Positions 2,708-60,246 of a stretch of 64,000 nucleotides of DNA are shown here, piece after piece. The translations under genes were made by a program, and so were the position numbers. The notes beneath the pieces were generated by a model, which was not told the DNA's origin, ran no database searches, and saw only the letters and a list, made by a program, of their open reading frames with translations. Numbering within the stretch: the first letter of the stretch is position 1; each line of letters starts with the position of its first letter. Origin of the DNA: an uncultured Verrucomicrobiota bacterium (GTDB lineage Bacteria > Verrucomicrobiota > Kiritimatiellia > SS1-B-03-39 > UBA6053); assembly GCA_937127435.1 (NCBI GenBank), contig CAKZLZ010000156.1, forward strand, positions 10,554 to 74,553, written 5' to 3'.

Positions 2708-2760
2708 GTAGTTCCACGGCCCCCGTGGTAAACGATTTACCGCGGGGGCCGCGGAACTAC
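2708..2760. repeat. GTAG-type REP doublet (inverted repeat)
   Basis: GTAGTTCCACGGCCCCCGTGGTAAA-CGA-TTTACCGCGGGGGCCGCGGAACTAC; same family recurs at 55852-55926. Confidence 0.75.
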
Positions 2761-5875: not shown

Positions 5876-6270
5876 AGTATGTATTGGATACACATACTTG
5901 GATATGGTGGAATGCCAATCCTGATAAATTATCCATTGATGTAAAAGAGTTGCTGGGTAACCCAGACCGGTTTTCAGAGATCCTTTTATCGGCAATTTCT
6001 CCATGGGAATTTTGTAAACTGATTGAGAAAAAGAGATACCTTATTTCTAATCATCCCCTCGAATGGATCGATCAGGCTTTGAAAATGACTAAATTACGGC
6101 TGGTACCCTTGACGCCTGCAATCAGCTACCGGTCAACCTCTCTTCCAGGATCTTTTCACGCGGATCCGGCCGATCAAATCATTGTCGCCACAGTAATGGA
6201 AGAAAATGCCATCCTTATCACCAAAGACGGACTGATTCAAAATTACCCACACCTGCGTACCCTATGGTAA
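5872..6270 (+). CDS. PIN-domain (VapC-like) toxin
   Basis: 132 aa; YVLDTHTWIWW, SAISPWE, HADPADQIIVAT, LITKDG. Confidence 0.92.
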   Translation: MKYVLDTHTWIWWNANPDKLSIDVKELLGNPDRFSEILLSAISPWEFCKLIEKKRYLISNHPLEWIDQALKMTKLRLVPLTPAISYRSTSLPGSFHADPADQIIVATVMEENAILITKDGLIQNYPHLRTLW

Positions 6271-6292
6271 AGATCCCGAGTTCCGGATGTTA

Positions 6293-7411
6293 TTATTCCG
6301 ATACGAGGCTGCTTAACGGTTCCTGATCCAAGTGACGAACCACGGGGCGTTTTTTGGGAGAGCGGGTGGTGCTCCCCGAGCACCAAAACCCGGGATTGAG
6401 CGCGAACACCGGATGCTCCGGCGTTCCCCGTTCCGCCCGGTGTATCTGACCAATCAGAATATCCATCATGGTTTGCAACTGACTTTCCATATCCTGATTG
6501 ATCCCGGTCACATCCTCCGATCCTTCCCCCCACTGGTCCAAGGTGGCGTAGCCCAGGTCCTTCGGAAATTTGATCCCCTCCTGCAGCAGCATGCGGTATA
6601 CCTCCTGGCCCGGACTGACCACAACATCGAGACGGTTTTTATCGATCCAGGCCAGGAGTGCGTTCGCATCATATTCTTCCGGAACAAAGATCGGGAGTTC
6701 GTTCATTACCCCTCGAAGTTGTTTCCAAAGGAGGTAGGCCGCGGACCAACGGTGATGCGTGCGAAGTTCCACATCCTGCCACATGGTGAGTCCGATTCGT
6801 TTGTATCCATCCGCTTCAAGCTCTGCCAAGGTCGTTAACATTCCCCTGAAGTGGTTATGCCGGACCCCACTGATCCGGGGGACCATCAGGGTATCGGAAA
6901 ATTCCACTGCACAGAATTTATCCCATTCCACGGGCAACGTTCTCACCCCCTGATGAAACATTTCCGGATGGATCATGGGGATGATGATTCCTTCGATTCC
7001 ACGTGTCCACATGATCCGGTTGATTCTCTCCGGAGTTGTGTCGGGATTATTCAGCCAAAAGGATTCCAGTTGGTATCCCCGGCTGTCTGTGATCTCCGTA
7101 AGCTTCGAGAAAATCTTTTGTTCCACAGGGTTCCATTCCTCGGTGGGGCCGCTGCGGATAAATCCCAAGGTCCCCTGATCTTTTAACGGTCCCTTTTTGG
7201 TGCTGGACATCAGTTTGGAGAGATGCGGGTTTGGTCGATAGCCCATCTCTTTGGCCAAAAATTTTATTTTTTCTTTGGTGGTCTTGGAAATTCTCGGGTG
7301 TCCTTTCAGAGCGAGGGAAACCGTGGCCTTGGATACCCCGGCCCGGTCGGCGATTTGCTGAAGAGAAACACTTTTGCGCTTTTGCATTCTTGGATTAGAT
7401 GCCGAATTCAC
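6293..7411 (-). CDS. LacI-family transcriptional regulator
   Basis: VSLQQIADRAGVSKATVSLAL...GYRPN helix-turn-helix plus periplasmic-binding-protein-like effector domain; true start may be a few codons later (MQKRK). Confidence 0.9.
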   Translation of the reverse strand: MNSASNPRMQKRKSVSLQQIADRAGVSKATVSLALKGHPRISKTTKEKIKFLAKEMGYRPNPHLSKLMSSTKKGPLKDQGTLGFIRSGPTEEWNPVEQKIFSKLTEITDSRGYQLESFWLNNPDTTPERINRIMWTRGIEGIIIPMIHPEMFHQGVRTLPVEWDKFCAVEFSDTLMVPRISGVRHNHFRGMLTTLAELEADGYKRIGLTMWQDVELRTHHRWSAAYLLWKQLRGVMNELPIFVPEEYDANALLAWIDKNRLDVVVSPGQEVYRMLLQEGIKFPKDLGYATLDQWGEGSEDVTGINQDMESQLQTMMDILIGQIHRAERGTPEHPVFALNPGFWCSGSTTRSPKKRPVVRHLDQEPLSSLVSE

Positions 7412-16116: not shown

Positions 16117-17718
16117 ATGATTGGGCAAGAGGATTTTTTCAGTGACGGGTCAGACGAAGGCAACAACTTAAGTTTGGCGAGGATCCATTCTGCCGCGGTA
16201 CTGGGGGTGGATGCGATTCCGGTGGAGGTGGAGGTCAATGTCAGCCCCACCCAGGAAAACAAATTTCAACCCAACATCGTGGGACTGCCGGATGCGGCAG
16301 TAAAAGAAAGTCTGGACCGGGTAAGCACCGCCCTGGCCAACAGCGGATTGGAAACGCCTTTTGCGATGAGATGGCTCATCAACCTCGCGCCTGCGGATCT
16401 CCGCAAGCAGGGGCCCAGTTTTGATTTACCGATTGCTTTGGCGACCTTGTCCGCATTGGAAGAGCTGACGCAGGAGCAACTCAAGGGAGCGATGGCGGTG
16501 GGGGAGTTGGCACTGTCCGGCAATTTACGTCCGGTGCGCGGGGTGTTGCCTATTGCGCTGCGGGCAAAGGAGATGGGAATTCAAAGGCTGTTTGTGCCTG
16601 AGGAAAACGGCGAAGAGGCGGCGGTGGTGGAGGGGTTAAAGGTGTATCCGGTGAAACATCTGCGGGAGGTTGTGGATTTCCTGAAAGGGGATTTAGAACT
16701 GCAAGCGCTGTCGCTGGATCTGGACAAGATGTTCGATCAGTATCAACAATACCCACTCGATTTTGCGGAAGTGAAAGGACAGGAAACTGCGCGGCGGGCT
16801 TTGGAGGTTTCGGTTGCGGGAGGTCATAATTTGTTGATGATCGGCTCTCCGGGCACGGGTAAAAGCATGATCGCTAAACGCATTCCCACCATACTGCCTC
16901 CGCTCAATTTGGCGGAATCATTGGAGGCAACCAAAATACATTCGATTGCCGGGACCCTGCCCGCACATCAGGCCCTGGTGGCACAACGGGCCTTTCGTGC
17001 GCCTCATCACACCGTTTCCGACGCGGGACTTTTAGGCGGAGGAACCTATCCCATGCCCGGAGAAGTAAGTCTGGCCCATCACGGGGTATTGTTTCTCGAT
17101 GAACTTCCTGAATTTGCCCGCAACGTATTGGAAGTGATGCGTCAACCTTTAGAGGACGGGGTGGTCAATATCAGTCGGGCGGCGGCCTCGGTTACCTTTC
17201 CCTGCAGTTGCATGCTCGTCGCAGCAATGAACCCGTGTCCCTGCGGTTATTATGGTGATCCCAAACGTAAATGCCATTGCACCCCCCAGCAGATTCAGCG
17301 CTACCGCAACCGGGTGAGTGGACCGTTGTTGGACCGTATTGACATTCAGATTGATGTACCGGCAGTCCGTTACGAAGAATTGACTTCACTCGAAAAAGGA
17401 GAAAGCTCCGCCGCCATTCGGGAGCGGGTCATCCGCGCCAGAAAAGTGCAGGAAGAACGCTTTGCCGACAATGACCGCATTCACTGCAACGCCAATATGG
17501 GCACCAAAGAACTGAATGAAGTTTGCCGCCTGGATGAGCAGGGGCATCAAATGTTGCGCATGGCCATGGACGAGTTAAACCTTTCCGCCCGCGCCTATGA
17601 CCGCATCCTCAAAGTCTCCAGAACCCTCGCCGACCTGGAGGGTGCAGAAGACATTCAACCCCACCATCTCGCCGAGGCCATCCAGTACCGGAGTTTAGAT
17701 CGGCAGGGGTGGACGTAA
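16117..17718 (+). CDS. comM: YifB/ComM-family Mg-chelatase-like AAA+ ATPase
   Basis: [93 protein letters not shown]. Confidence 0.93.
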
Positions 17719-44345: not shown

Positions 44346-44602
44346 GATGCATCCCTTCAGGATGCAATTGGGTTTGGTGAACTATTCCCCGGGTACGCTT
44401 CGCGACCCGGGGCTACGGTGAGGCACCCGCTTCGGGGTGCAAATTCAGGGGGAACACACAGTAACAGGGGAAATTTAGTTGCGGTATCCATTTCGGGCCG
44501 CCCATGTTTGATGTTCGCACCCCGAAGCGAGTGCCTCACCGCCCCCGGGGGCAACACCCCTTGATGGGGCCGAAATGAATTTGCAACCTCAAGGGATGCT
44601 TC
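44346..44602. repeat. ~257-bp nested inverted-repeat element between convergent genes
   Basis: Outer arms 44346-44367 / 44581-44602 (19/22); inner arms 44417-44440 / 44517-44540 (23/24). Confidence 0.8.
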
Positions 44603-45887
44603 ACCCTTGTTTCGGTACAATCCCGCCCTGATTTTCGATGGCCTGTTTCCAATCGGCTTTGGGGACTTGTTGGGCATCGTGTATGCCTGCTTTTGCTGCG
44701 CAGGCCGCGACGGCGCCCACGGCTTGGCCCATGGCCATACAGGATCCCTGGACCCGGAAGGCGGAGTTGGCGAGGCGGTCGCCACTGATGCAGCGTCCTG
44801 CCACCAACAATTGTTTGCGACCTTTGGGAATCATCGCGGACAAGGGCAGGGTGGGAAAAGTTCCGGGGGAGAGGATTCGGTAATCCAATCCTTCGTCGGT
44901 ATGCAAATCGATGGGATAGAAGCTGTAGCAGAGGGAATCTTCCCACAGGCGTCCACTCATATAATCATCGACGCTGACTGAAGTTTCTCCGACAATCGTG
45001 CGGGTTTCGCGTATCCCGCATTCCGATGCGCACCAGGATATTTTCAGGTCTTCCATTCCCGGCTGTTTCTTGAGGAAACGGACAGCCCGGATCACCGCTT
45101 TGCGGGCAGTGAGTTCGATTTCCGTTTTGCCCTGGCTGTCCATGGCATTGACTTTCGGGATATGAATCGAATTTTGTCCGTAGGTCTGGATGAGGTGGGC
45201 GAGAGATTTTCCTCCCCAGCCCAAATCGCTGGCATGGAGTTCTCCGGAGCGGAGGGCTTCAGGAATTTGGGCGTCAATGGCGGGGATGTCGAGTTCGGAG
45301 CTTTTATAGCCTTCCAGTTTAAACATCAGTGTGCCGGGTTGAAGTTCAGGGGGGAGCAGAAGCTCACAGCCGGCGATGGCCGAGAGATTGGCGTCTCCGG
45401 TGCAATCGATCAGCCATTTAGCAGAGACGGATTGTAATCCATCTTTGCCACAGAGTTGAACCTGCCAGTCTTCGCCTTCACCCCCGCTGACAGAGGCGAC
45501 CATGGTATGCAACTGCAGTTTGCATCCTGATTCGAGTACGGCCTCGTCGATTAATAACGCCAGCGTGGTGGGGCAGAGGCGGATCTGATGGTGCCAATGA
45601 CGTTCGGCCACTTCACTGAAATCAGGCAGGGCTTTGCCTGAATCCAGGGCTGCCTGTTTGACCAGGTTCCAACCGATGCCACTGATGACCTGTTTGCCCC
45701 AGGCATCAAATAATCCGGGAAAAGCTACGCCATTCAAGGTGGTGGTGCCACCCAGCATCCCGCTTTTTTCAACCAACAAAACGTTGGCGCCCTGTCGGGC
45801 GGCTTGAATGGCTGCGGGAAACCCAGCCGGGCCTCCACCGCAAACCACGACATCATAATGAGAATTTTCGTTGTTCGTGCTGTTCAT
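44601..45887 (-). CDS. FAD-dependent oxidoreductase (PF12831-like)
   Basis: DVVVCGGGPAG, LIDCTGDA, IRETRTIVGE, LLVAGRCIS, CMAMGQAVG. Confidence 0.88.
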   Translation of the reverse strand: MNSTNNENSHYDVVVCGGGPAGFPAAIQAARQGANVLLVEKSGMLGGTTTLNGVAFPGLFDAWGKQVISGIGWNLVKQAALDSGKALPDFSEVAERHWHHQIRLCPTTLALLIDEAVLESGCKLQLHTMVASVSGGEGEDWQVQLCGKDGLQSVSAKWLIDCTGDANLSAIAGCELLLPPELQPGTLMFKLEGYKSSELDIPAIDAQIPEALRSGELHASDLGWGGKSLAHLIQTYGQNSIHIPKVNAMDSQGKTEIELTARKAVIRAVRFLKKQPGMEDLKISWCASECGIRETRTIVGETSVSVDDYMSGRLWEDSLCYSFYPIDLHTDEGLDYRILSPGTFPTLPLSAMIPKGRKQLLVAGRCISGDRLANSAFRVQGSCMAMGQAVGAVAACAAKAGIHDAQQVPKADWKQAIENQGGIVPKQG

Positions 45888-47638: not shown

Positions 47639-49243
47639 TTAGTCTGCTTTCTGTTCGAGGACTTGTCCCTCTGCCAGTAGCTTTTCCCGTAGCTGTGGAT
47701 AGTCCAAATCCTGTAAGGCGCAGGTACTTTCCAGCGCAAGGTCGGCCGCCACTGCGGCACTGTGGGCCATGGCCATAAATACCGGTTCCATGCGCACGGA
47801 TCCATAGGCGATGTGGGAAGAGGAAAGGCAAACCGGTACCAGGATGTTTTCACATTCACCTTTGGCGGGGATGATGGAACGGTAGCTGACGCCGTAGGGG
47901 GCTTTGGGTTTTAACTGCACATCCCCCTCGTTCATCACCCGTCCGTCCCGAACGAAGCGTTGGCAGTTGTGACTGTCCATCGCGTAGGATCCCATGGCGA
48001 TGGGGTCGGCGGGCTGACGGAAATGTTGGGTGTCCTGTTCATTCAACACGTAGTCGGAGATCATGCGGCGCCCTTCACGGACATAAAGTTGATGGGGCCA
48101 GTGGGCAGTGTCGGTAAACTCATCTTTGGGAAGTCCCCAGCGGGCGTAGCCTGCGCGATAGCGCTCTGGAATAGAAGGGTCATTGGCCATAAACCAAAAT
48201 TGTCCTTTGATGTAGGTGACGTGATCCTGAAAGATTTTTTCACGCTCCTGATACCCCGCTTCGGGCCAGGCGTAGTTTGCACCAATATAATCGCTGGAGA
48301 CCGGACCGTGATTGTTGGTATCGGTTTTGGAAAAGCCCCCGGCAGTTTTCGGGCGCAGGATATCAAATTTCATCAAACGGTCCCCGGGTTTTGCATCCGG
48401 GTCCCGCAGGTGTTCGTTATACCAGTCTTTCTCGGAATTGAACCAGCGGCGGGCCAGCTCGTATTCTTCCGGATTGTAGTTTTCGGGTTTTTCCCAATCG
48501 ATTTTGAGATCGGGATCATCGGTCATGCAGACCCGGAAATTGTAGGCCTGAATTCGATGGTCGCCGGAACCTGAAGGATTACAGTCTTGCTCATTGATCC
48601 AGGGCAGGGTGCCGCTTTGAGGATCACCGGGGATCACATAGGGATCGACAAAATGGCTGAACTGATGTTTGTCGCGGTACTGTACGCCGTTAATGGTCTC
48701 ACCGTAGACGGAATTCGCTTCGCGTCCGACGTGGTAACTTACTCCTGCCTTGGCGTAGAGGTCACCTTCGTAGGTGCAGTCCATAAAGTAGGAACCACTC
48801 ACTTCCAATCCGCCCAGCATTTTGATCGAAGTGATACGGTTGTTTTCCAGTTTCACCTGATCCAGGTACTGAAGTTGATAAACGGTGATGCCCTCGGTTT
48901 CGGCATAGCGGTCTATAACCGCTTGGGCGGCTTTGGGTTCAAACAACCATTCAGGTTCCTCCAGACCGTAATAGTCGCCTAAATCTTTGTAGAAAAGGTA
49001 GGACATACCACCGATCACGCCTTTTTTGCCGAAGTCTGTCCATCCCAAACCGCCGGTGGTCATGCCGCCGAGGTGGCGGGCCGGATTGAGAATGACGACT
49101 TTGCGTCCTTTTTCAGCCAGGTTCTTGGCGGCGATAACCCCGGCGGCGGTGCCGCCGTAAATGACGACTTCGGTATCAATTTTTTCAGTGCGGGTTTGAA
49201 TCCATTCCGGAAGAAAATAGTGGGGGGCATTGGGTGTGTTCAT
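47639..49243 (-). CDS. FAD-dependent oxidoreductase (PF12831-like)
   Basis: VVIYGGTAAG, HLGGMTTGGLG, DCTYEGDL, QAYNFRVC, LYVREGRRM, GSVRMEPVFM. Confidence 0.9.
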   Translation of the reverse strand: MNTPNAPHYFLPEWIQTRTEKIDTEVVIYGGTAAGVIAAKNLAEKGRKVVILNPARHLGGMTTGGLGWTDFGKKGVIGGMSYLFYKDLGDYYGLEEPEWLFEPKAAQAVIDRYAETEGITVYQLQYLDQVKLENNRITSIKMLGGLEVSGSYFMDCTYEGDLYAKAGVSYHVGREANSVYGETINGVQYRDKHQFSHFVDPYVIPGDPQSGTLPWINEQDCNPSGSGDHRIQAYNFRVCMTDDPDLKIDWEKPENYNPEEYELARRWFNSEKDWYNEHLRDPDAKPGDRLMKFDILRPKTAGGFSKTDTNNHGPVSSDYIGANYAWPEAGYQEREKIFQDHVTYIKGQFWFMANDPSIPERYRAGYARWGLPKDEFTDTAHWPHQLYVREGRRMISDYVLNEQDTQHFRQPADPIAMGSYAMDSHNCQRFVRDGRVMNEGDVQLKPKAPYGVSYRSIIPAKGECENILVPVCLSSSHIAYGSVRMEPVFMAMAHSAAVAADLALESTCALQDLDYPQLREKLLAEGQVLEQKAD

Positions 49244-49315
49244 GGGGAAAGCTCTACTGAATATTGGCTGGACTGCTACATTAAATCCGGGGAAATTTTG
49301 GAAGGTAACTTGTCG

Positions 49316-52222
49316 ATGAAAGGTTTTGATCTAAAGGCTGTCTACTCTATAACCCCCGTTCTCATGCTTTTAGTTTACCAATTTTATGCCGTAGATTCCC
49401 TTCATTTGAGTGTACGTTGTTTTTCGCTGGATTTGCCTCAGGGTGACCGTTGGACGGGTACGGCTTATCCTTTAAAGCTGGATCACATCCTTGCCGGAAA
49501 GGTGAAAGGGTTACGCGTCACCAAGTTGGATCGCAAAATCCTGACCTCCATGCAAATGCATCAAAAGATTGGGGGAAATGAGAGTCTTTTTCAGGGTTTG
49601 GATGTAACGCGTCTGTTGGACCGGCTCATTGAATCGGGTCGGGCTTATCCCGCGGGCAAAAAAAATGCCTGGCCGCTCTCCGCCGGGGAAAATCCGGAAC
49701 CGAGCCTGGAATGGGTTCTGGAACCTGAAGGGTTAAAAACGACCGTAAACCTGGAGGAGGGCTGGCATTTGATTCCGGGGAGACCGGCCTATGGGTTGCA
49801 TGCGGATACCGGAAAGTGCGCTTCCGTGAAGTTGACGGTTTCCGATAAAGTGTTGTGGAAATGGATCACCATGCCCCTGATGACTGAACAGGCGGCCACT
49901 GATTTTTGGATAAAATTGGGTGAAGAATTTCCAGAAGATCTTTTGCCCGCACCTCCCAGTTTGAAAGTGAAGAGGAAAGAAGGGGTGAGGCCGGTACCGG
50001 TGCTTGAAGTGATGGAGCCGGATCAGACTTTGCAGATTCCGCGCACCGCGCGTCTGATGTTTCAATACGGGAAACAAATCATCTGCATTGATCAGGAGGG
50101 CGAGCTGGTGCGTTGGCTGGAAAAGGGCGGGGGAGTCGAGGTACAAAGAGACCATGCGGAGGAAGCAAAATATAAAAAGGTTCTGCCGACGATGGGTTTG
50201 CGGGAGTATCAAACGGCTTCCGACCAATTGTTTGCGGTTTCGCTGCCTGAAACCCGCTATGAATTGGATCCGGCTGCGCATAGTAGTTGGGATCTGTTTG
50301 TGATGAATGCGGAACCCGACTTTCGGGAAGCGGGCTGGCTACTGAATTTACCGCAGGCTTTGCGTCCGACCTGGGTGGACAACGATCAGTGGTACCGCAG
50401 TTTTGAGTCGGGCGGGAAAGAGGGGCTTTGTTATGAGCAGGGGATTGAAGTGGACGGGAAGCGGATCAATCTTCTGCCGGTGTTGCAGGATTTTTTGATG
50501 TATCGCAAACAAAATTCACTGGGAGAAATTTTAGAGGAGATTGGTACGGGGTCTTTTCCTCTACATAGTGAAGTGGGCTTGTTGATGATTGATGCGGGTC
50601 GTTTTCAGCAAATGGTGAAAACCTTATTCGAGTTGTTTGGGGGCGGCAGCCTGGATCGGCAAAACCGCTTGCGGATCAGCGACTGGCGGGCGGCGGAATT
50701 GTACGACGAAGAGGTCGAAGGATGGCAGCCGACCCCGGAACTGCTCAAAGCGGTGGAAGGCTTGGGGGCGCAGGATTTGCAGGTGCAGAGCCTCGAACCA
50801 CCGACAGGTTTTGTCGGCGAGTTGCGGGATTATCAAAAACGGGGCTTAGGCTGGATCGATTTTCTTTCCAAGTACCATTTGGGCGGCATCCTGGCCGATG
50901 ATATGGGGTTGGGGAAAACGGTGCAAGTGATTGCGGCTTTCTTGGAAATAAAAAATAATGTCTCAGGTGAGACATTATTTTTGGTGGTTTGTCCGACCAG
51001 TGTTCTGCCCAACTGGAAATCGGAAATAAAAAAATTTGCGCCGGGTTTACGAGTCCACACCCATCACGGCAGCGACCGGAATCAGCGTCAGGACAACTTG
51101 CGCAATGCGGAGGTGCTGATCACCACGTACGGAACCTTGCTGCGGGATGAAGGCCAATTCAAAGACATGAAATTTTCGGGCATCATTTTGGATGAAGCCC
51201 AGGCGATCAAAAATCCCCGGGCAAAAATCAGTAAAGTGGTCTGCGGATTACAGGCGGATCTGCGATTGGCTTTGTCGGGGACTCCCCTGGAAAATCATTT
51301 GGGTGAACTACGCTCGCTGTTTCAGTTTGCTTTGCCGGGATATTTGGGAAGTGAAAAGATTTTTAATGCGGTGATCCGTCATCCGATTGAAAAAGACAAT
51401 TCGTCCCGGGCGAAAGAATTGTTGCGTCAGAAGACCGCGCCCATCCTGTTGCGCCGCAGCAAAGATGCGGTGGCCACGGAGTTGCCTCCCAAAACGGAGA
51501 TCGTGCAGGAGCTGCCTTTAACGCCCCAGCAAGTAGATCTATATGAAGTGATTCGGGCCGCAGGTGAAAAGGATTTAATGGAAACCATCCAGGATCAGGG
51601 TTTTGAGCGTTCGCAGATTCAGGTCTTGGATGTGTTGTTGAAGTTGCGGCAGATCTGTTGTGATCCGCGGATTTGTAAAGCGGTTCCCAAAGATGTGAAA
51701 TTGGAGTCGCCGGTGAAGATCCAGTGGTTGCGGGAAGTCTTGCCGGAAATGCTGGAAGAGGGACGGCGGATTTTGTTGTTCTCCCAGTTTACTTCGATGC
51801 TGGATTTGATTCAGGTGGAAATGAAGGATCTGAAGATTCCCTTTGTGGAGATTCGGGGATCGACCAAAGACCGGGAAAAACCGGTGAAAGATTTTCAAAG
51901 TGGAAAGGTGCCGGTGTTCCTGATCAGCCTCAAAGCGGGTGGAACCGGATTAAATCTGACGGCGGCGGATACGGTGATCTTCTTTGATCCCTGGTGGAAT
52001 CCGGCGGTGGAAGCGCAGGCCGCCGATCGCGCGTACCGTATCGGACAGGACAAGCCGGTATTTGTGTATAAACTGATTTGTGCCGGCACGGTGGAGTCAC
52101 GGATCATCGAACTGCAAGAGCAGAAGAAGGCTTTGCAGGATGTGCTTCATTCGGATGCGGGTGGCGGCATGAAACTCAGTGAAGACGATTTCCGGGCCCT
52201 GCTGTCTCCGCTAGAGAAGTGA
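49316..52222 (+). CDS. SNF2-family helicase-like ATPase
   Basis: LRDYQ, GILADDMGLGKT, ILDEAQAIKN, LSGTPLENHL, LFSQF, SLKAGGTGLNLT, DRAYRIGQ; start at ATG 49316 after GAAGGT. Confidence 0.92.
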   Translation: MKGFDLKAVYSITPVLMLLVYQFYAVDSLHLSVRCFSLDLPQGDRWTGTAYPLKLDHILAGKVKGLRVTKLDRKILTSMQMHQKIGGNESLFQGLDVTRLLDRLIESGRAYPAGKKNAWPLSAGENPEPSLEWVLEPEGLKTTVNLEEGWHLIPGRPAYGLHADTGKCASVKLTVSDKVLWKWITMPLMTEQAATDFWIKLGEEFPEDLLPAPPSLKVKRKEGVRPVPVLEVMEPDQTLQIPRTARLMFQYGKQIICIDQEGELVRWLEKGGGVEVQRDHAEEAKYKKVLPTMGLREYQTASDQLFAVSLPETRYELDPAAHSSWDLFVMNAEPDFREAGWLLNLPQALRPTWVDNDQWYRSFESGGKEGLCYEQGIEVDGKRINLLPVLQDFLMYRKQNSLGEILEEIGTGSFPLHSEVGLLMIDAGRFQQMVKTLFELFGGGSLDRQNRLRISDWRAAELYDEEVEGWQPTPELLKAVEGLGAQDLQVQSLEPPTGFVGELRDYQKRGLGWIDFLSKYHLGGILADDMGLGKTVQVIAAFLEIKNNVSGETLFLVVCPTSVLPNWKSEIKKFAPGLRVHTHHGSDRNQRQDNLRNAEVLITTYGTLLRDEGQFKDMKFSGIILDEAQAIKNPRAKISKVVCGLQADLRLALSGTPLENHLGELRSLFQFALPGYLGSEKIFNAVIRHPIEKDNSSRAKELLRQKTAPILLRRSKDAVATELPPKTEIVQELPLTPQQVDLYEVIRAAGEKDLMETIQDQGFERSQIQVLDVLLKLRQICCDPRICKAVPKDVKLESPVKIQWLREVLPEMLEEGRRILLFSQFTSMLDLIQVEMKDLKIPFVEIRGSTKDREKPVKDFQSGKVPVFLISLKAGGTGLNLTAADTVIFFDPWWNPAVEAQAADRAYRIGQDKPVFVYKLICAGTVESRIIELQEQKKALQDVLHSDAGGGMKLSEDDFRALLSPLEK

Positions 52223-52223
52223 T

Positions 52224-52320
52224 GGAGCGCGGACACTCCTGTCCTAGCAGAACCTCTAGCATAAGCCACAGCATAAGAAACATGCGGGAGGTTTCGCCAG
52301 GACAGGAGTGTCCGCGCTCC
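52224..52320. repeat. REP-like element with perfect 22-bp terminal inverted repeats
   Basis: GGAGCGCGGACACTCCTGTCCT (52224-52245) / AGGACAGGAGTGTCCGCGCTCC (52299-52320). Confidence 0.85.
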
Positions 52321-52343
52321 GTTAAACTACGTTTTTTATTCTA

Positions 52344-53354
52344 TCACGACGGTCTCAAGCTGGACCCCTCCACCCATTTTCCGTTGTGAAGCAGGGTTTT
52401 GGGGATTTCGGGGATGCCGGTTTCTTTGCGTAGACGGGCGTTCATCACTAGATCTACTGCTGATTCCGCAATGAGCGCGAAGGGCTGAAGAATGCCTGCG
52501 ATGATGCCGTCATCACGAAAACAGCTCATAGATGCAAACCCCATCTCAGGACAATGCGCCTTCTGAAAGGCGTGCCATTGAGACTTGTTCCCTATGATCA
52601 TATCTGGATCCATTTTCTTTAACCAGCCGACTTTTTCAGATGCATTTTCTATTTTCGATCTGAAAATTCTGTTTTCCCCACCTGTTTCCCAGGCCATAAA
52701 GGCTGCGGAGTAGGCCCGGTGGGTCCGCGCTTCAAAATCCATATCAAGCATGAGCACGGGTCGTCTGTAGCCCTTTTGATGGATTTGTTCTAAGGCATGA
52801 ATCATCGAATAAAAGTGGCTGACTTGTGACCGGTGCAAGGGGGGATCTTTCAAACTGCTTCCAATGTGAACGGCACTGAAGTCCTGCCAATCCAATTCAG
52901 GTGCCGGAATATCTGCATCATTTGAAGGCGTGATGATGATACTTTGGATGCCTCGTGCTTTTAGAATACGGTTCAGGGCTTTTGCGTTTAAATCTGGCGT
53001 GAGTGGAATGTGTTCCAGTTTAAATCCATGATGTTGAGCGCCGCTTTCCAGACCCTTACAGGTTTGTTGAGCGTAGCTATGCATGTTTTTAACCCCTTTC
53101 CAGCGGGCGGGCCACCAAATGACGGCCACCGTTTCCTGATAGGTTACAGGTTTTCGGGCCGCGAAACTACTCATTAATTCGCTCACCATATGATCAGGTT
53201 TGTAGCCCATCTCCTCAGCCTTTTTGAGGATTTTCACCCGCATTTCTGGTCGAATGGATGCTTCGGGTGAGAATGCCCGTGACACCATCATACGAGAAAC
53301 GCCAACGGCTTCTGCAATTTGGCGCAGAGAGGGAGGAGGGCTTGAATTATTCAT
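52344..53354 (-). CDS. LacI-family transcriptional regulator
   Basis: SLRQIAEAVGVSRMMVSRAF...MGYKPD helix-turn-helix; same subtype as 6293-7411. Confidence 0.88.
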   Translation of the reverse strand: MNNSSPPPSLRQIAEAVGVSRMMVSRAFSPEASIRPEMRVKILKKAEEMGYKPDHMVSELMSSFAARKPVTYQETVAVIWWPARWKGVKNMHSYAQQTCKGLESGAQHHGFKLEHIPLTPDLNAKALNRILKARGIQSIIITPSNDADIPAPELDWQDFSAVHIGSSLKDPPLHRSQVSHFYSMIHALEQIHQKGYRRPVLMLDMDFEARTHRAYSAAFMAWETGGENRIFRSKIENASEKVGWLKKMDPDMIIGNKSQWHAFQKAHCPEMGFASMSCFRDDGIIAGILQPFALIAESAVDLVMNARLRKETGIPEIPKTLLHNGKWVEGSSLRPS

Positions 53355-53465
53355 AGAGGTGTTTTGCTTTGTGACAGTAACAAAATCAAGAAGCTATTTG
53401 ACGCCGTTTATCCATGGTATGAGAGATTTACACGTATGCCTAACGCTACGAAAGGAGCCTTCTCT

Positions 53466-54164
53466 ATGAAAAAACTAAAACGCACCCTTCTTTGTACAGC
53501 ATCTGCAGTCCTCTGCTTAACACCTGCTCGCACAGATATCCTGGTTCATTATGCTTTCACGGGTGGTTCCTCAGCCCCGAACAGTGAGTGGACGGGTGTC
53601 GATGCCGATAATTTTGTTGCCAACTTTGGTGTAAATACATCTGCCTCGTCGGGCGATGATGCCGGGTTTTCTTCGTTCTCAGAAAATGCCTATATCCGGA
53701 CGGATGCCACGGGTTCAACTGAAGCAGCAGCGCTTTCAGATGATGATTATTTCAGCTTTGAGATCTCAGCCGCAAACCCAGGAGAATTCCTGAATTTGGC
53801 ATCACTCGTGTTTGATTTTGGCGGTTCTTCGGGTTCGGAATATGATAGCGAGATTTATGTGCAGTCAAGTGTGGGTGGATTCGGTACTGGAAACCCAGTC
53901 ATTTTTACCAGTACCCATACTGTGCCTGCAAGTTCAGCGGATGCTGCGGGATTGACCTCTGGAACATCCGTAGATCTGACAGGATTTGCTCCTGTGGAAA
54001 CGATCTCTTTTCAATTTCGTTTTTCAGATGATGCAGGTACTCTCAGCCAATTAAATCGTCTCGACAACGTGATCTTAAATGGGGCGGTGGTAATTCCTGA
54101 GCCTTCTTCCCTCTTTTTACTGAGTATTGCTGTGCTGGGTCTAATCTTTTATAAAAGAAAATAA
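53466..54164 (+). CDS. PEP-CTERM surface protein
   Basis: AAGGAG RBS, signal peptide, RLDNVILNG, IPEPSS + hydrophobic stretch + YKRK. Confidence 0.87.
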   Translation: MKKLKRTLLCTASAVLCLTPARTDILVHYAFTGGSSAPNSEWTGVDADNFVANFGVNTSASSGDDAGFSSFSENAYIRTDATGSTEAAALSDDDYFSFEISAANPGEFLNLASLVFDFGGSSGSEYDSEIYVQSSVGGFGTGNPVIFTSTHTVPASSADAAGLTSGTSVDLTGFAPVETISFQFRFSDDAGTLSQLNRLDNVILNGAVVIPEPSSLFLLSIAVLGLIFYKRK

Positions 54165-54166
54165 AT

Positions 54167-55759
54167 ATGTTTGATATCGTCATTTACGGTGGAACGAGTG
54201 CAGGGGTCATGGCCGCGATCCAGGCCGCTCGGATGGGTAAATCTGTTGCATTAATTGAACCTGGAAAACACCTCGGGGGCATGACCACCGGGGGACTCGG
54301 GTGGGTGGATGTGGGAAATCCGCAAACCATCGGCGGACTTGCCCGGGAGTATTTCCACAGCGTTTGGAAACACTATCAGGATGAAGCCGCATGGAAATGG
54401 GAGACCAAGCGGCAAATGAAGGGACAGCATGCTCCGCTGTCTCCTGATGAACAAACCATGTGGATACTTGAACCTTCCGTCGCGGAGCACCTGTTTGAAA
54501 AAATGGTGGGCGAAGCAAACGTGTTGGTTTTACGCAACCAGTGGCTGAACCGCGAAAGCGGGGTGAAAATGGAAGGAGAAAAGATCGTCAGTATCGGTAT
54601 GGAATCGGGCCGGATTTTTGAAGCAAAGATGTTTATTGACGCCAGTTATGAGGGAGATCTCATGGCAGCTGCAGGGGTCTCGTATACAGTTGGACGCGAA
54701 TCAAATAGTCAATACAACGAAACCGTAAATGGAAAAACATCTCTGCCAAAAGCAGGGACCCTGCCCGATATAGATCCTTATCAAATACCAGGAGATGCGA
54801 GCAGCGGACTCCTGCCCCGCATTCATGCCGACAGGGGTGGAGAAGTGGGCGGGGGCGATCAGGAAGTACAAGCGTACAACTATCGAATGTGTCTTACAAA
54901 GGTTCCTGAAAACCGTATAAGCATTGAAAAGCCCGCCACATACGACGAAAAAAACTACGAGATCGTATTCCGCTTCATCGAAGCGGGTGGAATGGAGAAT
55001 GATTTTTTCATACATCATCTGCATGGGTCCATACTCAAGAATGACCCGCTCCCCAATGGAAAGACGGACACCAATAACAATGGATATATTTCCACGGATT
55101 ATGTGGGAATGAGCGGGGAGTATCCAGAGGCGGATTACGCCACCCGTAAGCGCATTGCCCACGCACATGAACAATGGCAAAGAGGCTTGGTCTGGACCCT
55201 GCAAAATCATCCGCGCATTCCCGAACCCCTGCGCAATCAATACGCGCCATGGGGTCTGGCCAAGGACGAATTTATCGATAACGGGCACTGGCCCACCCAG
55301 CTGTATATTCGGGAAGCCCGCCGAATGATCTCAGATCATGTTATCACTGAGCATATCGCCCGTAGCAAAGAAATTGCCCCGGATCCATTGGGACTGGGTT
55401 CTTATGCCATCGATTCTCATGCGACAAAATGGTTCGTTTCCCCTGAAGGCTTTATGAGCCGGGACGGCGGCATGTTCCACAGACTGCCTCAACCCTTTGG
55501 AATCAGCTATCGTGCCCTGATACCCAAACGCAATGAATGCCAAAATCTCTTGGTGCCTGTCTGCGTCTCCGCCACCCATGCCGCATATGGATCCATTCGG
55601 ATGGAACCGGCTTTTATGGTGTTGGGACAATCCGTTGCGACTGCCGCAAGTCTTGCGATTGACCGTAATAACATCCCCTTGCAGGATTTACCCTACGATG
55701 TGCTGCGGGCGTGTTTATTGTCGGACGGGCAAATTATCGATTGGCCAGCGGGGGAATGA
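54167..55759 (+). CDS. FAD-dependent oxidoreductase (PF12831-like)
   Basis: DIVIYGGTSAG, HLGGMTTGGLG, DASYEGDL, QAYNYRMCLT, LYIREARRM, GSIRMEPAFM. Confidence 0.9.
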   Translation: MFDIVIYGGTSAGVMAAIQAARMGKSVALIEPGKHLGGMTTGGLGWVDVGNPQTIGGLAREYFHSVWKHYQDEAAWKWETKRQMKGQHAPLSPDEQTMWILEPSVAEHLFEKMVGEANVLVLRNQWLNRESGVKMEGEKIVSIGMESGRIFEAKMFIDASYEGDLMAAAGVSYTVGRESNSQYNETVNGKTSLPKAGTLPDIDPYQIPGDASSGLLPRIHADRGGEVGGGDQEVQAYNYRMCLTKVPENRISIEKPATYDEKNYEIVFRFIEAGGMENDFFIHHLHGSILKNDPLPNGKTDTNNNGYISTDYVGMSGEYPEADYATRKRIAHAHEQWQRGLVWTLQNHPRIPEPLRNQYAPWGLAKDEFIDNGHWPTQLYIREARRMISDHVITEHIARSKEIAPDPLGLGSYAIDSHATKWFVSPEGFMSRDGGMFHRLPQPFGISYRALIPKRNECQNLLVPVCVSATHAAYGSIRMEPAFMVLGQSVATAASLAIDRNNIPLQDLPYDVLRACLLSDGQIIDWPAGE

Positions 55760-55809
55760 AACGCAGCGAAGACGATTTTCGCAAGGTGCTGTCGCCGCTT
55801 GAGAAGTAA
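55756..55809 (+). pseudogene. Displaced, diverged copy of the SNF2 gene 3' end
   Basis: 43/54 identical to 52169-52222; MKRSEDDFRKVLSPLEK-stop vs MKLSEDDFRALLSPLEK-stop. Confidence 0.9.
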
Positions 55810-55851: not shown

Positions 55852-55926
55852 GTCGTTCCACGGCCCCCGTGGTAAACGAATGCTTCGGCTTTGGATTCGG
55901 TTTTACCACGAGGGCCGTGGAACGAC
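55852..55926. repeat. REP doublet of the same family as 2708-2760
   Basis: GTCGTTCCACGGCCCCCGTGGTAAA ... TTTACCACGAGGGCCGTGGAACGAC (24/25 inverted). Confidence 0.8.
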
Positions 55927-55940
55927 CTGACCCAGATCAG

Positions 55941-56342
55941 CTATCGATGTTTGATCCATTCGCAATCATACAACTCAAATTGGCGGTCGGAGGAAAACAG
56001 GGGAATGCTTTTTGAAATGGAGAGTGAAAGAATCATCCTGTCAACCGGATCCTTATGGTGCATGGGTAAGCTTTCGGCATGGCAGGCATTTTGAGCGTCT
56101 AAGCTGTACCAGGTTAATTGGAAATGGGTCATAACCTCTGTTAAAAATTCAGAGAGGGTCTCCGTTTCACAGGGAAGTGACAGTTTTCCGATTCTTAATT
56201 TTCGGGCGATTTCCCATGCCGATAAGCTGTGTACAACCGGGTGGGTGGCATTTTCCAGTTCTTGGATGGCAGATTGGTTTTGCCATCTTCCGGCCACAAG
56301 GTCCACTAAAGCACAAGTATCCAGAACATGCGTAACTCTCAT
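55941..56342 (-). CDS. PIN-domain (VapC-like) toxin
   Basis: VLDTCALV, SLSAWEI, HHKDPVDRMI, SSDRQF. Confidence 0.88.
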   Translation of the reverse strand: MRVTHVLDTCALVDLVAGRWQNQSAIQELENATHPVVHSLSAWEIARKLRIGKLSLPCETETLSEFLTEVMTHFQLTWYSLDAQNACHAESLPMHHKDPVDRMILSLSISKSIPLFSSDRQFELYDCEWIKHR

Positions 56343-56563
56343 TCCTCATCCCACTCGGATTCCCACAGGGCTTCATCCGAAACCGAAGTTTGGGCTTTCC
56401 ATTCCGCTACCGGCTCCAAGCAACGTGCGGGTGGGTTTTCCACCGCCACAATTCGGAAAGCCTGTCCGTAAACGCCTCTACGAATAAACACCGATTCTCC
56501 CTCTTCTACTTTTTTCAGTAGAGCAGATAATTGTGTTTTGGCTTTGTGTACAGTTACTTCCAT
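56339..56563 (-). CDS. Phd/YefM-family antitoxin
   Basis: VTVHKAKTQLSALLKKVEEGESVFIRR; 4-bp overlap with the PIN gene. Confidence 0.88.
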   Translation of the reverse strand: MEVTVHKAKTQLSALLKKVEEGESVFIRRGVYGQAFRIVAVENPPARCLEPVAEWKAQTSVSDEALWESEWDEE

Positions 56564-56729: not shown

Positions 56730-57113
56730 TTATTCTGCAGCTTCAGCTTCTTCGGTCGCGGTTTCCACAGGTGCTTCCACAGGAGTTTCAACCTCTGCAG
56801 GCAGCGTTTCAGCTTCAACCGGCGCAGACATTCCCGGAGGAGGCGCCATTTCCGGTACGCTGTATTCGCTACCGCGGGAATAAAGTACCGCCAATGCAAT
56901 CGTGTTCAACAGAAAGACAGAGGCGAATACGATCGTCGCTTTGGTGAGCACATTTCCGGTGCGGGCGCCAAAGAGCTGTTCGCTCATGCCGCCTCCACCC
57001 AATGCGCCACCCAGTCCGCCTCCACTTTTGGAAGGTTGAACCAGGATGATCAAGGTCAGCAGGATGCTGACCAGGATCTCGACCACAATTAAAAGTCCGA
57101 TAAGAATGTTCAT
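56730..57113 (-). CDS. secG: Preprotein translocase subunit SecG
   Basis: ILVQPSKSGGGLGGALGGG, LFGARTGNVLTKAT; follows tpiA. Confidence 0.92.
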   Translation of the reverse strand: MNILIGLLIVVEILVSILLTLIILVQPSKSGGGLGGALGGGGMSEQLFGARTGNVLTKATIVFASVFLLNTIALAVLYSRGSEYSVPEMAPPPGMSAPVEAETLPAEVETPVEAPVETATEEAEAAE

Positions 57114-57122
57114 ACCGGTCTC

Positions 57123-57884
57123 TTACGCTTCAATCGCGGCTTTGACAATCCCAATAAAGGATGGAGCGTCCAGAGCGGCACCGCCGATCAATCCGCCGTC
57201 AATGTCGGGTTTAGACAGCAATTCCGCTGCATTTGCGGGTTTCATGCTGCCGCCGTACTGAATGCGCACGGTATCTGCGATGGCCTGACTGCTCAGTTCA
57301 ACCAGCAAAGAGCGGATGAAAGCGTGAACTTCCTGTGCCTGCTCGGGGCTGGCGGTTTTGCCGGTGCCGATGGCCCAGACGGGTTCGTAAGCCACTACCA
57401 GGTTTTTGAAGTCGGCTTCAGACAGCCCGGCGAGTCCGCCGTTGATCTGGGTGCGAATCACGTCCTGGTATTTGTCCGCTTCACGTTCTTCGAGGGTTTC
57501 ACCTACGCAAACGATGGGTTTTAAGCCGGCAGCCAGGGCCGCTTTGGTCTTTTGGTTGACGGATTCGTCGGTTTCACCGAAGTACTGGCGGCGTTCGCTG
57601 TGTCCGAGGATCACGTAGCGGCAGTATTGCTCGCGCAGCATTTCCGCGGAGATTTCACCGGTGTAAGCGCCGGAAGCTTCGAAGTGCATGTTTTGTGCAC
57701 CTACGGCGATCTGGGTGCCGGATACGGCCTGACTCACTGCGCTGATGGCGGTGAAGGGAGGGCAAAGGACTACGTCGACTTTGGCTTCGGAATCGAGATC
57801 CCGTTTGATCGCGTCCGCGAGGTTTTGGGCCTCGGAGACGGTTTTGTTCATCTTCCAGTTACCTGCAATAATTTTTTTTCTCAT
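57123..57884 (-). CDS. tpiA: Triosephosphate isomerase
   Basis: IAGNWKMNK, GHSERR, AYEPVWAIGTG, YGGSMKP, GGAAL. Confidence 0.98.
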   Translation of the reverse strand: MRKKIIAGNWKMNKTVSEAQNLADAIKRDLDSEAKVDVVLCPPFTAISAVSQAVSGTQIAVGAQNMHFEASGAYTGEISAEMLREQYCRYVILGHSERRQYFGETDESVNQKTKAALAAGLKPIVCVGETLEEREADKYQDVIRTQINGGLAGLSEADFKNLVVAYEPVWAIGTGKTASPEQAQEVHAFIRSLLVELSSQAIADTVRIQYGGSMKPANAAELLSKPDIDGGLIGGAALDAPSFIGIVKAAIEA

Positions 57885-57901
57885 AATTTTTCTCGGTTGA
57901 T

Positions 57902-59107
57902 TTATTTGTCGGAAAGGGCGTCAAGTCCGGGGAGAACTTTGCCTTCCATTAATTCCAAACTTGCACCGCCACCGGTGCTGATGTGGGTAATTTTGTCATC
58001 GAGGCCGGCCAGTTTGATGGCCGCCACGGAATCACCGCCGCCGATGATACTGATACATTCGGTGTTGTCTGCAACCGCCTGGGCAATGGTATTGGTACCG
58101 GAAGCAAAGGGGGCCATTTCGAAGCAACCCATGGGGCCGTTCCAAACCACGGTTTTTGCAGAAGCAATTTCCGCAGCAAACAGTGCCTGGGTTTTGGGTC
58201 CGATGTCCAAACCTTCCCAACCGTCGGGAATGTCGCCATCCACGATGTCGGTGTTGGCGGATTCACTGAAGTCATCCCCGATTTTATTATCGATGGGCAG
58301 GAGCAGTTTTACGCCTTTGGCTTTGGCATCGGCCATGATCTGGGTAGCCAAATCGAGTTTGTCATCTTCATGGATGGATCCGCCAATCTTCTGGCCCATG
58401 GCTTTGAAGAAGGTGTATGCCATGCCGCCACCGATGAGGATGGTGTCGCATTTGTCCATGAGATTGATGACCACATCAATTTTACCGGAGATTTTTGCGC
58501 CGCCGATGATGGCCACAAAGGGATGCTCGGGGGCTTCCAGGGTTTTAGACAAATAGTTGATTTCTTTTTCCAGCAGGAGGCCGGCCGCACATTCTTCAAT
58601 GTATTCCGTGACCCCGGCGGTGGAGGCGTGGGCGCGGTGGGCGGTGCCGAAAGCATCGTTCACGTAGACTTCGCCTAAAGAAGCGAGGGCTTTGGTGAAG
58701 GTGGTTTTGGCTTCGTCGGTGCAGCCTTTGCCTTCTTCTTCGGCGTAGAAACGCAGATTTTCGAGCAAAAGAATTTCTCCGGCCTGCAGGGCCGCAGCTT
58801 TGGCCTGTGCATCTTCACCGACAGAGTCGCTGGCGAAGGCTACCGGTTTCCCGAGTTTAGCAGACAGGGCCGCGGCCACAGGTTTCAGGGTAAATTCGGG
58901 TTTTACTTCACCCTTCGGACGGCCGAGATGGCTCATCAGAATGATCGAAGCATTTTGTTCCAGCAAGTACTGGATGGTCGGCAGGGCGGCCTCAATCCGG
59001 GTGTCGTCGCCGACAGATCCGTCTTCATTCACGGGCACGTTAAAATCGACCCGCATCAGGACTTTTTTGCCCTGAACATCAATATCTTTTACTGTTTTTT
59101 TGTTCAT
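57902..59107 (-). CDS. pgk: Phosphoglycerate kinase
   Basis: RVDFNVP, SHLGRPKG, LENLRF, NDAFGTAHRAHAS, WNGPMG, HISTGGGASLE. Confidence 0.98.
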   Translation of the reverse strand: MNKKTVKDIDVQGKKVLMRVDFNVPVNEDGSVGDDTRIEAALPTIQYLLEQNASIILMSHLGRPKGEVKPEFTLKPVAAALSAKLGKPVAFASDSVGEDAQAKAAALQAGEILLLENLRFYAEEEGKGCTDEAKTTFTKALASLGEVYVNDAFGTAHRAHASTAGVTEYIEECAAGLLLEKEINYLSKTLEAPEHPFVAIIGGAKISGKIDVVINLMDKCDTILIGGGMAYTFFKAMGQKIGGSIHEDDKLDLATQIMADAKAKGVKLLLPIDNKIGDDFSESANTDIVDGDIPDGWEGLDIGPKTQALFAAEIASAKTVVWNGPMGCFEMAPFASGTNTIAQAVADNTECISIIGGGDSVAAIKLAGLDDKITHISTGGGASLELMEGKVLPGLDALSDK

Positions 59108-59132
59108 GTGTATTCTTTTCCTAAGCGCAACA

Positions 59133-59166
59133 CATCCCGAAGCCTTCCGTGGAAGCCTTCGGGATG
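59133..59166. other. Intercistronic hairpin between gap and pgk
   Basis: CATCCCGAAG ... CTTCGGGATG perfect 10-bp stem; no clear U tail. Confidence 0.5.
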
Positions 59167-59190
59167 CGAATTAGTTCATCTGGAGGTTGT

Positions 59191-60246
<1,056 letters not shown>

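Follow-up and report, generated by a model that had tools for sequence, protein, structure and literature searches.

A stretch of 64,000 nt of DNA from an uncultured Verrucomicrobiota bacterium (contig CAKZLZ010000156.1; hereafter the window, meaning the whole stretch at its full length) carries the 3' end of a SNF2-family helicase gene twice, once where it completes the gene (T1) and once as a displaced, non-functional copy (T2). Between them lie 3.5 kb with a hairpin resembling repetitive extragenic palindromic (REP) elements, a LacI regulator, a PEP-CTERM protein and an oxidoreductase dependent on flavin adenine dinucleotide (FAD), here called ox. That a displaced SNF2 end brackets this block was claimed in an earlier note on the same DNA and is borne out by the coordinates and by a repeat search. 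Judged from sequence divergence and codon composition, the block is one that moved laterally, and it is tentatively proposed, at close to even chances, that its insertion was driven by homology, through either a one-sided exchange plus an illegitimate join (homology-facilitated illegitimate recombination, HFIR) or a single crossover of a circle. The features concerned are the following (GC3, G+C content at third codon positions).

49364..52222, plus strand: SNF2-family helicase gene (Pfam SNF2-rel_dom 1.5e-68, Helicase_C 4e-23)
52163..52222, plus strand: T1, resident functional SNF2 3' end and left member of the direct repeat, GG MKLSEDDFRALLSPLEK and stop
52344..53354, minus strand: LacI-family regulator, first cargo gene (Pfam LacI HTH 1.1e-7; GC3 0.50)
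53436..54164, plus strand: PEP-CTERM-anchored secreted protein (Pfam PEP-CTERM at residues 244-266; GC3 0.38)
54167..55759, plus strand: ox, FAD-dependent oxidoreductase (PF12831), last cargo gene (Pfam 1.9e-106)
55750..55809, plus strand: T2, displaced non-functional copy of the SNF2 3' end, GG MKRSEDDFRKVLSPLEK and stop

T1 and T2 form the top-ranked direct repeat of the repeat search. They have the same orientation and align without a gap, with 43 of 54 bases identical over the following codons.

T1, 52169-52222: ATG AAA CTC AGT GAA GAC GAT TTC CGG GCC CTG CTG TCT CCG CTA GAG AAG TGA
T2, 55756-55809: ATG AAA CGC AGC GAA GAC GAT TTT CGC AAG GTG CTG TCG CCG CTT GAG AAG TAA

By chance, about 1e-10 matches of at least 43/54 would be expected anywhere in the window, and the repeat runs 6 nt further upstream (52163-52220 and 55750-55807, 79% identity). 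The codons differ by five synonymous changes, the change of stop (TGA/TAA) and three replacements (L/R, A/K and L/V), with no indel, all as the earlier note had listed them; its statement that the copy ends exactly at the stop codon is likewise correct, the likeness indeed stopping there on the 3' side. At the 5' edge, only ATGAAAC (7 nt) is identical, and this edge may be a secondary deletion.

The helicase gene is of full length, its product aligning through the last residue with homologues P0001-P0007. Its open reading frame (ORF), 49073-52222, has a mechanical start at GTG 49073, and the homologues begin at MLLVYQF, corresponding to 49364. The true end of SNF2 is 52169-52222, and 55750-55809 is a dead relic of such an end, without evident function beyond giving ox its stop codon. 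Because the TGA stop of ox overlaps the ATG of T2 (ATGA), the last two codons and the stop of ox come from T2, read in another frame; the window protein ends in ...DWPAGE and its B1221 orthologue in ...DWPA. The ATGA overlap could in principle couple translation of the 17-residue T2 peptide, and there is no support for such coupling. For annotation, the 17-codon T2 ORF should be marked as a pseudo-end rather than a gene, and the ox C-terminus (..AGE and stop) as borrowed sequence.

The window belongs to a member of the Kiritimatiellota, in which the closest SNF2 proteins are also found: that of Kiritimatiellaeota bacterium B1221, a DEAD/DEAH helicase, is 93% identical to the window's, that of B12222 78%, and those of several metagenome contigs 53-75%. 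Between window and B1221, the synonymous divergence (dS) is 0.96 for SNF2, 0.98 and 1.05 for the two genes upstream of it, and 1.1 and 1.5 for two transglutaminase-like genes, against 0.31 for LacI, 0.34 for the PEP-CTERM gene and 0.34 for ox; as proportions of differing synonymous sites (pS), the values are 0.25-0.27 for the block and 0.54-0.57 for SNF2 with its upstream genes. The ratio of non-synonymous to synonymous divergence (dN/dS) is raised in the block genes, and GC3 is 0.38-0.54 in the cargo versus 0.57-0.65 in its neighbours. Low dS and GC3 together indicate that the ancestor of the block in the window and B1221 is more recent than that of the surrounding chromosome, which agrees with the earlier view that the block came from elsewhere. 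No part of SNF2 has low divergence (pS against B1221 is 0.41 over the last 70 codons and 0.48 over the last 19), so the recently shared tract would start at or just after the SNF2 stop codon; no recombination breakpoint inside SNF2 was found by sliding pS against B1221 and B12222. As for a donor, the ox homologues at 75-77% identity lie in polysaccharide-degradation clusters, and no LacI/PEP-CTERM/oxidoreductase trio was found there.

The interval between SNF2 and the secG-tpiA-pgk-gap run varies among relatives. In L089, a distant relative, the SNF2 stop is followed after 73 nt (intervening stretch L089:10666-10737) by the convergent secG-tpiA-pgk-gap run, and of the arrangements seen, this one, with SNF2 directly facing the run, is the simplest and probably ancestral. 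B12222 carries GerE-type regulators and an 1812-aa protein at this place (L082:12857-21374), L085 and L086 carry two ATP-binding cassette (ABC) transporters, with DUF1214 also present in L085:12872-17530, and the LacI/PEP-CTERM/ox block occupies it in the window and B1221. Neither recombinase nor mobile-element genes were found in the cargo of any lineage at the SNF2/secG locus. Since the cargo is unrelated from one lineage to another, the SNF2/secG junction is regarded as a recurrent entry point, that is, an integration hotspot. Only one SNF2 is present at the locus in L089, B12222, L085 and L090.

A scan of every related locus for duplication of its SNF2 end brought up one more case, the Logan contig L084 (source SRR13704942), whose SNF2 is 59% identical to the window's. 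Its copy (16163-16372) lies 9.7 kb downstream of the real SNF2 end at 6479, and the repeat (6225-6514 and 16163-16407; about 255 nt, 77% identical) comprises the last 70 SNF2 codons and about 35 nt past the stop. The copy begins just after the TGA of a cargo gene and is dead, having an internal TAA. The cargo of L084 consists of an ILEI-domain protein, a 1021-aa protein, four small proteins and a 649-aa TPR-like protein; Pfam gives only ILEI and weak TPR matches, and no integrase or transposase domain. The same scar thus stands behind different cargo in a relative with 59% SNF2 identity, in keeping with the SNF2/secG locus as a recurrent entry point. Among the matches listed, no displaced SNF2 ends were found at 80 distant SNF2 loci.

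That the differences between T1 and T2 are mostly synonymous had been taken in the earlier note to mean that both evolved as functional C-termini, on the assumption that a dead duplicate would show mostly non-synonymous changes. This null is too simple: because the working copy still gathers synonymous changes, a duplicate made in place is expected to show a ratio of non-synonymous to synonymous proportions (pN/pS) of about 0.5, not 1. In the window, T1 and T2 differ by 5.5 synonymous and 4.5 non-synonymous changes (pS 0.49, pN 0.11, pN/pS 0.23), for which simulation gives P=0.02-0.05 against pure neutrality, a marginal rejection (0.023 where the copy alone decays), and P=0.12-0.27 against a duplicate made in place. 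In L084, the copy and the resident end differ by 30 synonymous and 18 non-synonymous changes (pS 0.66, pN 0.11; pN/pS 0.08 in the first 40 codons), and both the in-place duplicate (P=2e-4) and neutrality (P=3e-9) are rejected. Pooling of further copies had been suggested as a check, and with L084 added the synonymous excess is stronger, not gone (pooled pN/pS 0.18). On this pattern of substitution, it is certain that each of the two L084 ends had served as a working gene end, in separate lineages, by the time they were joined. The proposition that both ends were once functional C-termini therefore stands for L084 (P=2e-4) and not as it was argued from the 17 codons of the window (P=0.12).

Additional evidence on the two ends comes from relatives. 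The working end of B1221 (TB) has 10 differences from T1 and 9 from T2; at synonymous sites, pS is 0.27 for T2 versus TB, as in the block, and 0.51 for T1 versus TB, as in SNF2 (0.54). That T2 is closer to TB than T1 is at these sites (3 versus 6 differences, not significant) can be taken as a hint only. Polarisation with B12222 (and B1221) assigns mostly replacements (L to R, L to V, N/K) to T2 alone and mostly synonymous changes to T1 alone. The check suggested in the earlier note, a search of relatives for the two alleles, was negative for T2: no intact SNF2 of a relative ends exactly in ...RKVLSPLEK, and B1221, which has the block, has no copy.

T2 is also found behind ox in two sequencing runs, in a 281-nt contig of X1 (about 95% identical) and in a 2548-nt contig of X3 (about 92% identical). 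Codon 3 of T2 is CTC (Leu) in X3 where it is CGC (Arg) in the window; with Leu kept in X3, the Arg of the window is a late, strain-level change of decay. The relic itself predates the splits among the window strain and its X1 and X3 relatives. Separately, X3 holds a variant SNF2 end, ...KLNIDDFRNLL-SALR and stop, that joins the last bases of the right arm of the hairpin I1 (window 52309-52325; listed below) and then the end of LacI, as would result from the loss of about 104 nt between TGTC microhomologies, leaving the helicase C-terminus partly encoded by the repeat; the T2 copy of X3 has the same join. An X3 joint going back 3578 was considered as a circle junction and rejected, as the shorter side is 33 nt and REP-type sequence continues; the circle reading of this joint is also weakened by B1221-type ends, which align better to T2 than to T1. 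In runs X1 and X2 (same species, 3-5x contig depth), no joint skipping the roughly 3.59 kb of an excision was found.

The right side of the block is best described together with the flanking features.

52224..52320, no strand: I1, long imperfect palindrome (97 nt) between the convergent SNF2 and LacI genes, with 39-nt arms that are 87% complementary
55852..55926, no strand: I4, inverted pair of REP-like units between T2 and the convergent vapC, with 25-nt arms that are 96% complementary
55941..56563, minus strand: vapC (PIN; 55941-56342; Pfam PIN 5.9e-11) and a small upstream antitoxin-like ORF (56339-56563)
56730..57113, minus strand: secG, first gene of the conserved secG-tpiA-pgk-gap run (shared gene order)

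In B1221, the block is present and T2 is absent: ox ends ...DWPA TAA, after which come 64 nt and the 3' end of vapC, homology with the window resuming at ACCCAGA just past I4. No match in the window was found for these 64 nt, which stand in place of T2. The window has an intact vapC/vapB pair; B1221 retains both ends of vapC and has lost about 300 nt from its middle (L081:11660-11903). The two right junctions thus differ, and both look like deletions or illegitimate joins; the right join falls in the last codons of ox, B1221 reading ...CCCGCATAA and the window ...CCAGC followed at the join by GGGGGAATGA, with at most about 2-5 nt that could be shared.

A course of events may be proposed for these observations. 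In this Kiritimatiellota group, SNF2 would first have faced the secG-tpiA-pgk-gap run, with vapBC between them in the window's lineage. A self-contained block, made up of the LacI regulator and a divergent two-gene operon for the PEP-CTERM protein and the FAD oxidoreductase, would then have recombined into the last codons of SNF2, anchored in the conserved 3' coding sequence of the gene, the incoming DNA having its own SNF2 end beside the cargo. Two versions of the helicase end would accordingly have been involved, that of the incoming DNA and that of the resident chromosome, of which one now completes SNF2 (T1) and the other is stranded behind the cargo beside the old downstream sequence (T2). 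The second join could have used the same homology, by a single crossover of a circular piece, or could have been illegitimate, as in HFIR. The synonymous differences between T1 and T2 would have arisen while both were working ends in related lineages and would not reflect present selection on the relic; after stranding, T2 would have decayed, as by the change of Leu to Arg in the window strain, its first bases now serving only to end the ox ORF.

How the DNA recombined and which of the two ends was the incomer are both matters of inference. By position, T2 would be the native end, as it adjoins the old downstream sequence; by the pattern of divergence, there is a weak indication that T1 is native, T1 diverging from the B1221 end like the rest of SNF2. 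The claim in the earlier note that one end came in with the block agrees with the presence of two ends and with the lateral nature of the block, and a reading of the resident end, 52169-52222, as the incomer is not supported (pS 0.51 versus 0.54). A homology-driven insertion is favoured because the cargo holds no recombinase, the repeat starts at different codons (19 codons before the SNF2 stop in the window versus about 70 in L084) and the right joins are untidy.

Several points weigh against this proposal. B1221, the closest carrier of the block, is without the copy, and its right junction is not that of the window; the proposal must therefore allow for one or more further events, namely a deletion, or acquisition of the block independently or by clean homologous exchange. 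The 5' edge that T2 shows today could have been set by a secondary deletion and not by the original join. The 17 codons of the window are compatible with an in-place duplicate (P=0.12). The L084 repeat opens with a 20-nt identical stretch, GCAGACCGCGCCCACCGCAT, within helicase motif VI; it is by far the longest identical run, is about 0.5% likely by chance there and, resembling the core of an attachment (att) site, favours a site-specific recombinase. Finally, no donor, block-free genome of the clade, empty site or circular junction was found in genome contigs, metagenome contigs or run joints: metagenome contigs gave no match to the tail pattern E[DE]DFRx[LV]LSPLE or to the SNF2 N-terminal domain, and genome contigs, queried with the C-terminal 349 aa of SNF2, gave only distant SNF2 genes (at most 56% identity) among the matches listed.

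The strongest alternative, though an unlikely one, is a decayed island of the integrase type, as in e14 and icd, now reduced to a cis-mobilizable element (CIME). A recombinase-bearing element with its att site in the SNF2 3' coding region would have used a tyrosine or serine recombinase, its attP bringing a surrogate gene end, and would later have lost the recombinase module by deletion; in the window, a deletion would have run from the ox stop into T2, and a larger one in B1221 would have taken T2 too. The anatomy is that of e14, icd and icdC, with an intact target, a mostly synonymous alternative end and a stranded far pseudo-end (PMC13626634). CIMEs by definition keep attL and attR and lose their integration genes (PMC5704250), the 20-nt identity block in motif VI stands at the very beginning of the L084 repeat, and the right junctions of both the window and B1221 resemble deletion ends. 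What tells against such an island is that an integrase is absent from both cargoes and from the other cargoes at the locus, that the window block leaves no room for remnants, that the repeat begins at different SNF2 positions in the window and L084, and that neither an excision product among the run joints nor a viral contig with the tail pattern was seen. The viral contigs gave no match to that pattern, and their SNF2 matches cover the whole helicase domain, except for L102, which is cut at the contig start. As a separate observation, three IMG/VR contigs predicted to be viral or prophage (L101, L107 and L109) terminate no more than about 20 nt from the stop codon of an SNF2 gene with 51-55% identity; prophages of other bacteria may have their borders at SNF2 ends, or the contigs may simply have been trimmed there.

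It is improbable, but of wider consequence, that SNF2 ends serve in Kiritimatiellota as a dedicated landing pad for small integrase-less blocks that carry a spare helicase end. If this were true, the blocks would move between species via helicase-end recombination, excise as circles and re-enter by single crossover; alternatively, an unlinked recombinase reading the motif VI stretch would move them, and the stranded ends would be working attachment sites, not scars.

A duplicate made in place, in which some 58 nt at the end of the recipient's SNF2 were copied by the insertion itself, through a long target duplication or staggered-break repair, and the copies have diverged since, one selected and one free, also has a low probability. 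It fits the counts in the window (P=0.12-0.27), and changes private to T2 are mainly replacements and those private to T1 mainly synonymous, as it would have them. It is rejected for the L084 repeat (P=2e-4), however, and there is no transposase and no terminal inverted repeat; transposition is not known to leave target duplications as long as 58-255 nt, and T2 is no further from the B1221 end than T1 is (9 versus 10 differences). A transposon or insertion sequence with target-site duplication was rejected, as there is no transposase domain, the block ends are not inverted copies of one another, and L084 rejects an origin in which the two ends were identical at birth. That T2 is the remnant of a second, downstream SNF2 paralogue, otherwise deleted and unrelated to the arrival of the block, is highly improbable: only the presence of a gene fragment speaks for it, whereas a single SNF2 occurs at the locus in L089, B12222, L085 and L090, T2 is as near to the orthologous ends as those are to each other, and the same bracketing geometry recurs in L084.

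Homology-driven insertion into the SNF2 end can be set beside several known systems. In E. coli K-12, e14 lies in icd as a 15 kb prophage remnant with its own integrase and excisionase and with icdC as the pseudo-end (PMC13626634; Hill et al. 1989 therein). As with e14 and phage 21 in icd, the block sits in the 3' end of a coding gene that is intact by virtue of a second version of its end; as with e14 and icdC, the ends differ mostly synonymously, the displaced one is a pseudogene fragment on the far side, and their recombination would restore a hybrid gene. Unlike e14, the block is made up of three accessory genes of an ordinary kind; a recombinase is lacking, excision was not seen, and its repeat is 58 nt, that of e14 being about 165 nt. 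The window feature has the structural features of the e14/icd type, and the one that it fails to show is a recombinase gene inside the element.

CIMEs, which a related integrase mobilises in trans, are left in the 3' ends of target genes by decayed integrative and conjugative elements (ICEs) or integrative and mobilizable elements (IMEs) and have no integration or transfer genes (PMC5704250). The window block is similar in that its flanking repeats are kept and integration genes are absent, and different in that CIMEs share att sites with a known ICE or IME integrase system; none is known or was found here, the 64 kb of the window being what was covered, and the repeats are only 79% identical. 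HFIR has been proposed to explain how effector ends were displaced and immunity genes orphaned in type VI secretion system (T6SS), Rhs and contact-dependent growth inhibition (CDI) loci (PMC5361080). In those loci, as here, cargo has been added behind a conserved anchor gene, with older pieces orphaned downstream and no mobile-element genes. There, however, a conserved 5' region is accompanied by displaced variable 3' toxin tips and immunity genes; in the window, it is the conserved end of the gene that occurs twice, and the cargo bears no relation to the anchor gene. The SNF2/secG interval, with different accessory genes in each lineage and no mobile-element genes, is also like a core-gene hotspot, although that concept alone predicts no stranded end of a flanking gene. 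Integration hotspots between conserved core genes were reportedly described by Oliveira, Touchon and Rocha in 2017.

The scar is best filed under a type already known, that of e14 and icdC, what is new being its occurrence in a little-studied phylum and the unusual lack of mobility genes. It offers a dated, readable record of how accessory genes enter the chromosome in a poorly studied phylum: a small block of a regulator plus an operon appears to have crossed species and entered a conserved helicase gene at its 3' end, leaving SNF2 in working order, and no mobile-element gene is present.

The two palindromes flanking the block require separate mention. I1 sits directly after the SNF2 stop and folds at -72.7 kcal/mol (z -11). 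In the contigs of run X3, the depth of its arm is about 895 against about 34 in the flanks (about 25-fold), and the flanks differ between copies; it is mostly absent in B1221. I4 is separated from T2 by a 42-nt spacer, folds at -58.5 kcal/mol (z -5.2), and has a unit that recurs at window 2708-2760, 53 kb away. Since I1 is multi-copy with varied flanks, both hairpins are taken as REP-like and not as part of the T1/T2 repeat pair; they represent two families of REP-like palindromic intergenic repeats. Rfam gave only sub-threshold, miRNA-like matches on both palindromes, a scan for promoters and terminators gave no signal above chance level, and by the repeat search, neither end of the block is an inverted repeat of the other.

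Within the block, Pfam recognises LacI, PEP-CTERM and FAD_oxidored only, with no integrase or transposase domain. The PEP-CTERM ORF opens at TTG 53364, and its likely start is ATG 53436 or 53466. Three paralogous PF12831 FAD oxidoreductases lie inside 12 kb (44601-45887, 47639-49243 and 54167-55759). The ox of the block and its B1221 orthologue begin at the Rossmann fold, the signal peptide of all homologues at 70-77% identity being missing.

On the right flank, the minus strand carries vapC/vapB, secG, tpiA, pgk and gap, in this order along the window. The low dS of the secG-tpiA-pgk-gap run was considered as a mark of a transferred tract and rejected, the run being equally slow against B12222 and L089; as tpiA, pgk and gap are slow in these comparisons too, strong codon constraint rather than co-transfer is the probable explanation. 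Against every relative, tpiA, pgk and gap (57123-60195) show far lower synonymous divergence than their neighbours, the pS of gap being 0.20-0.39.

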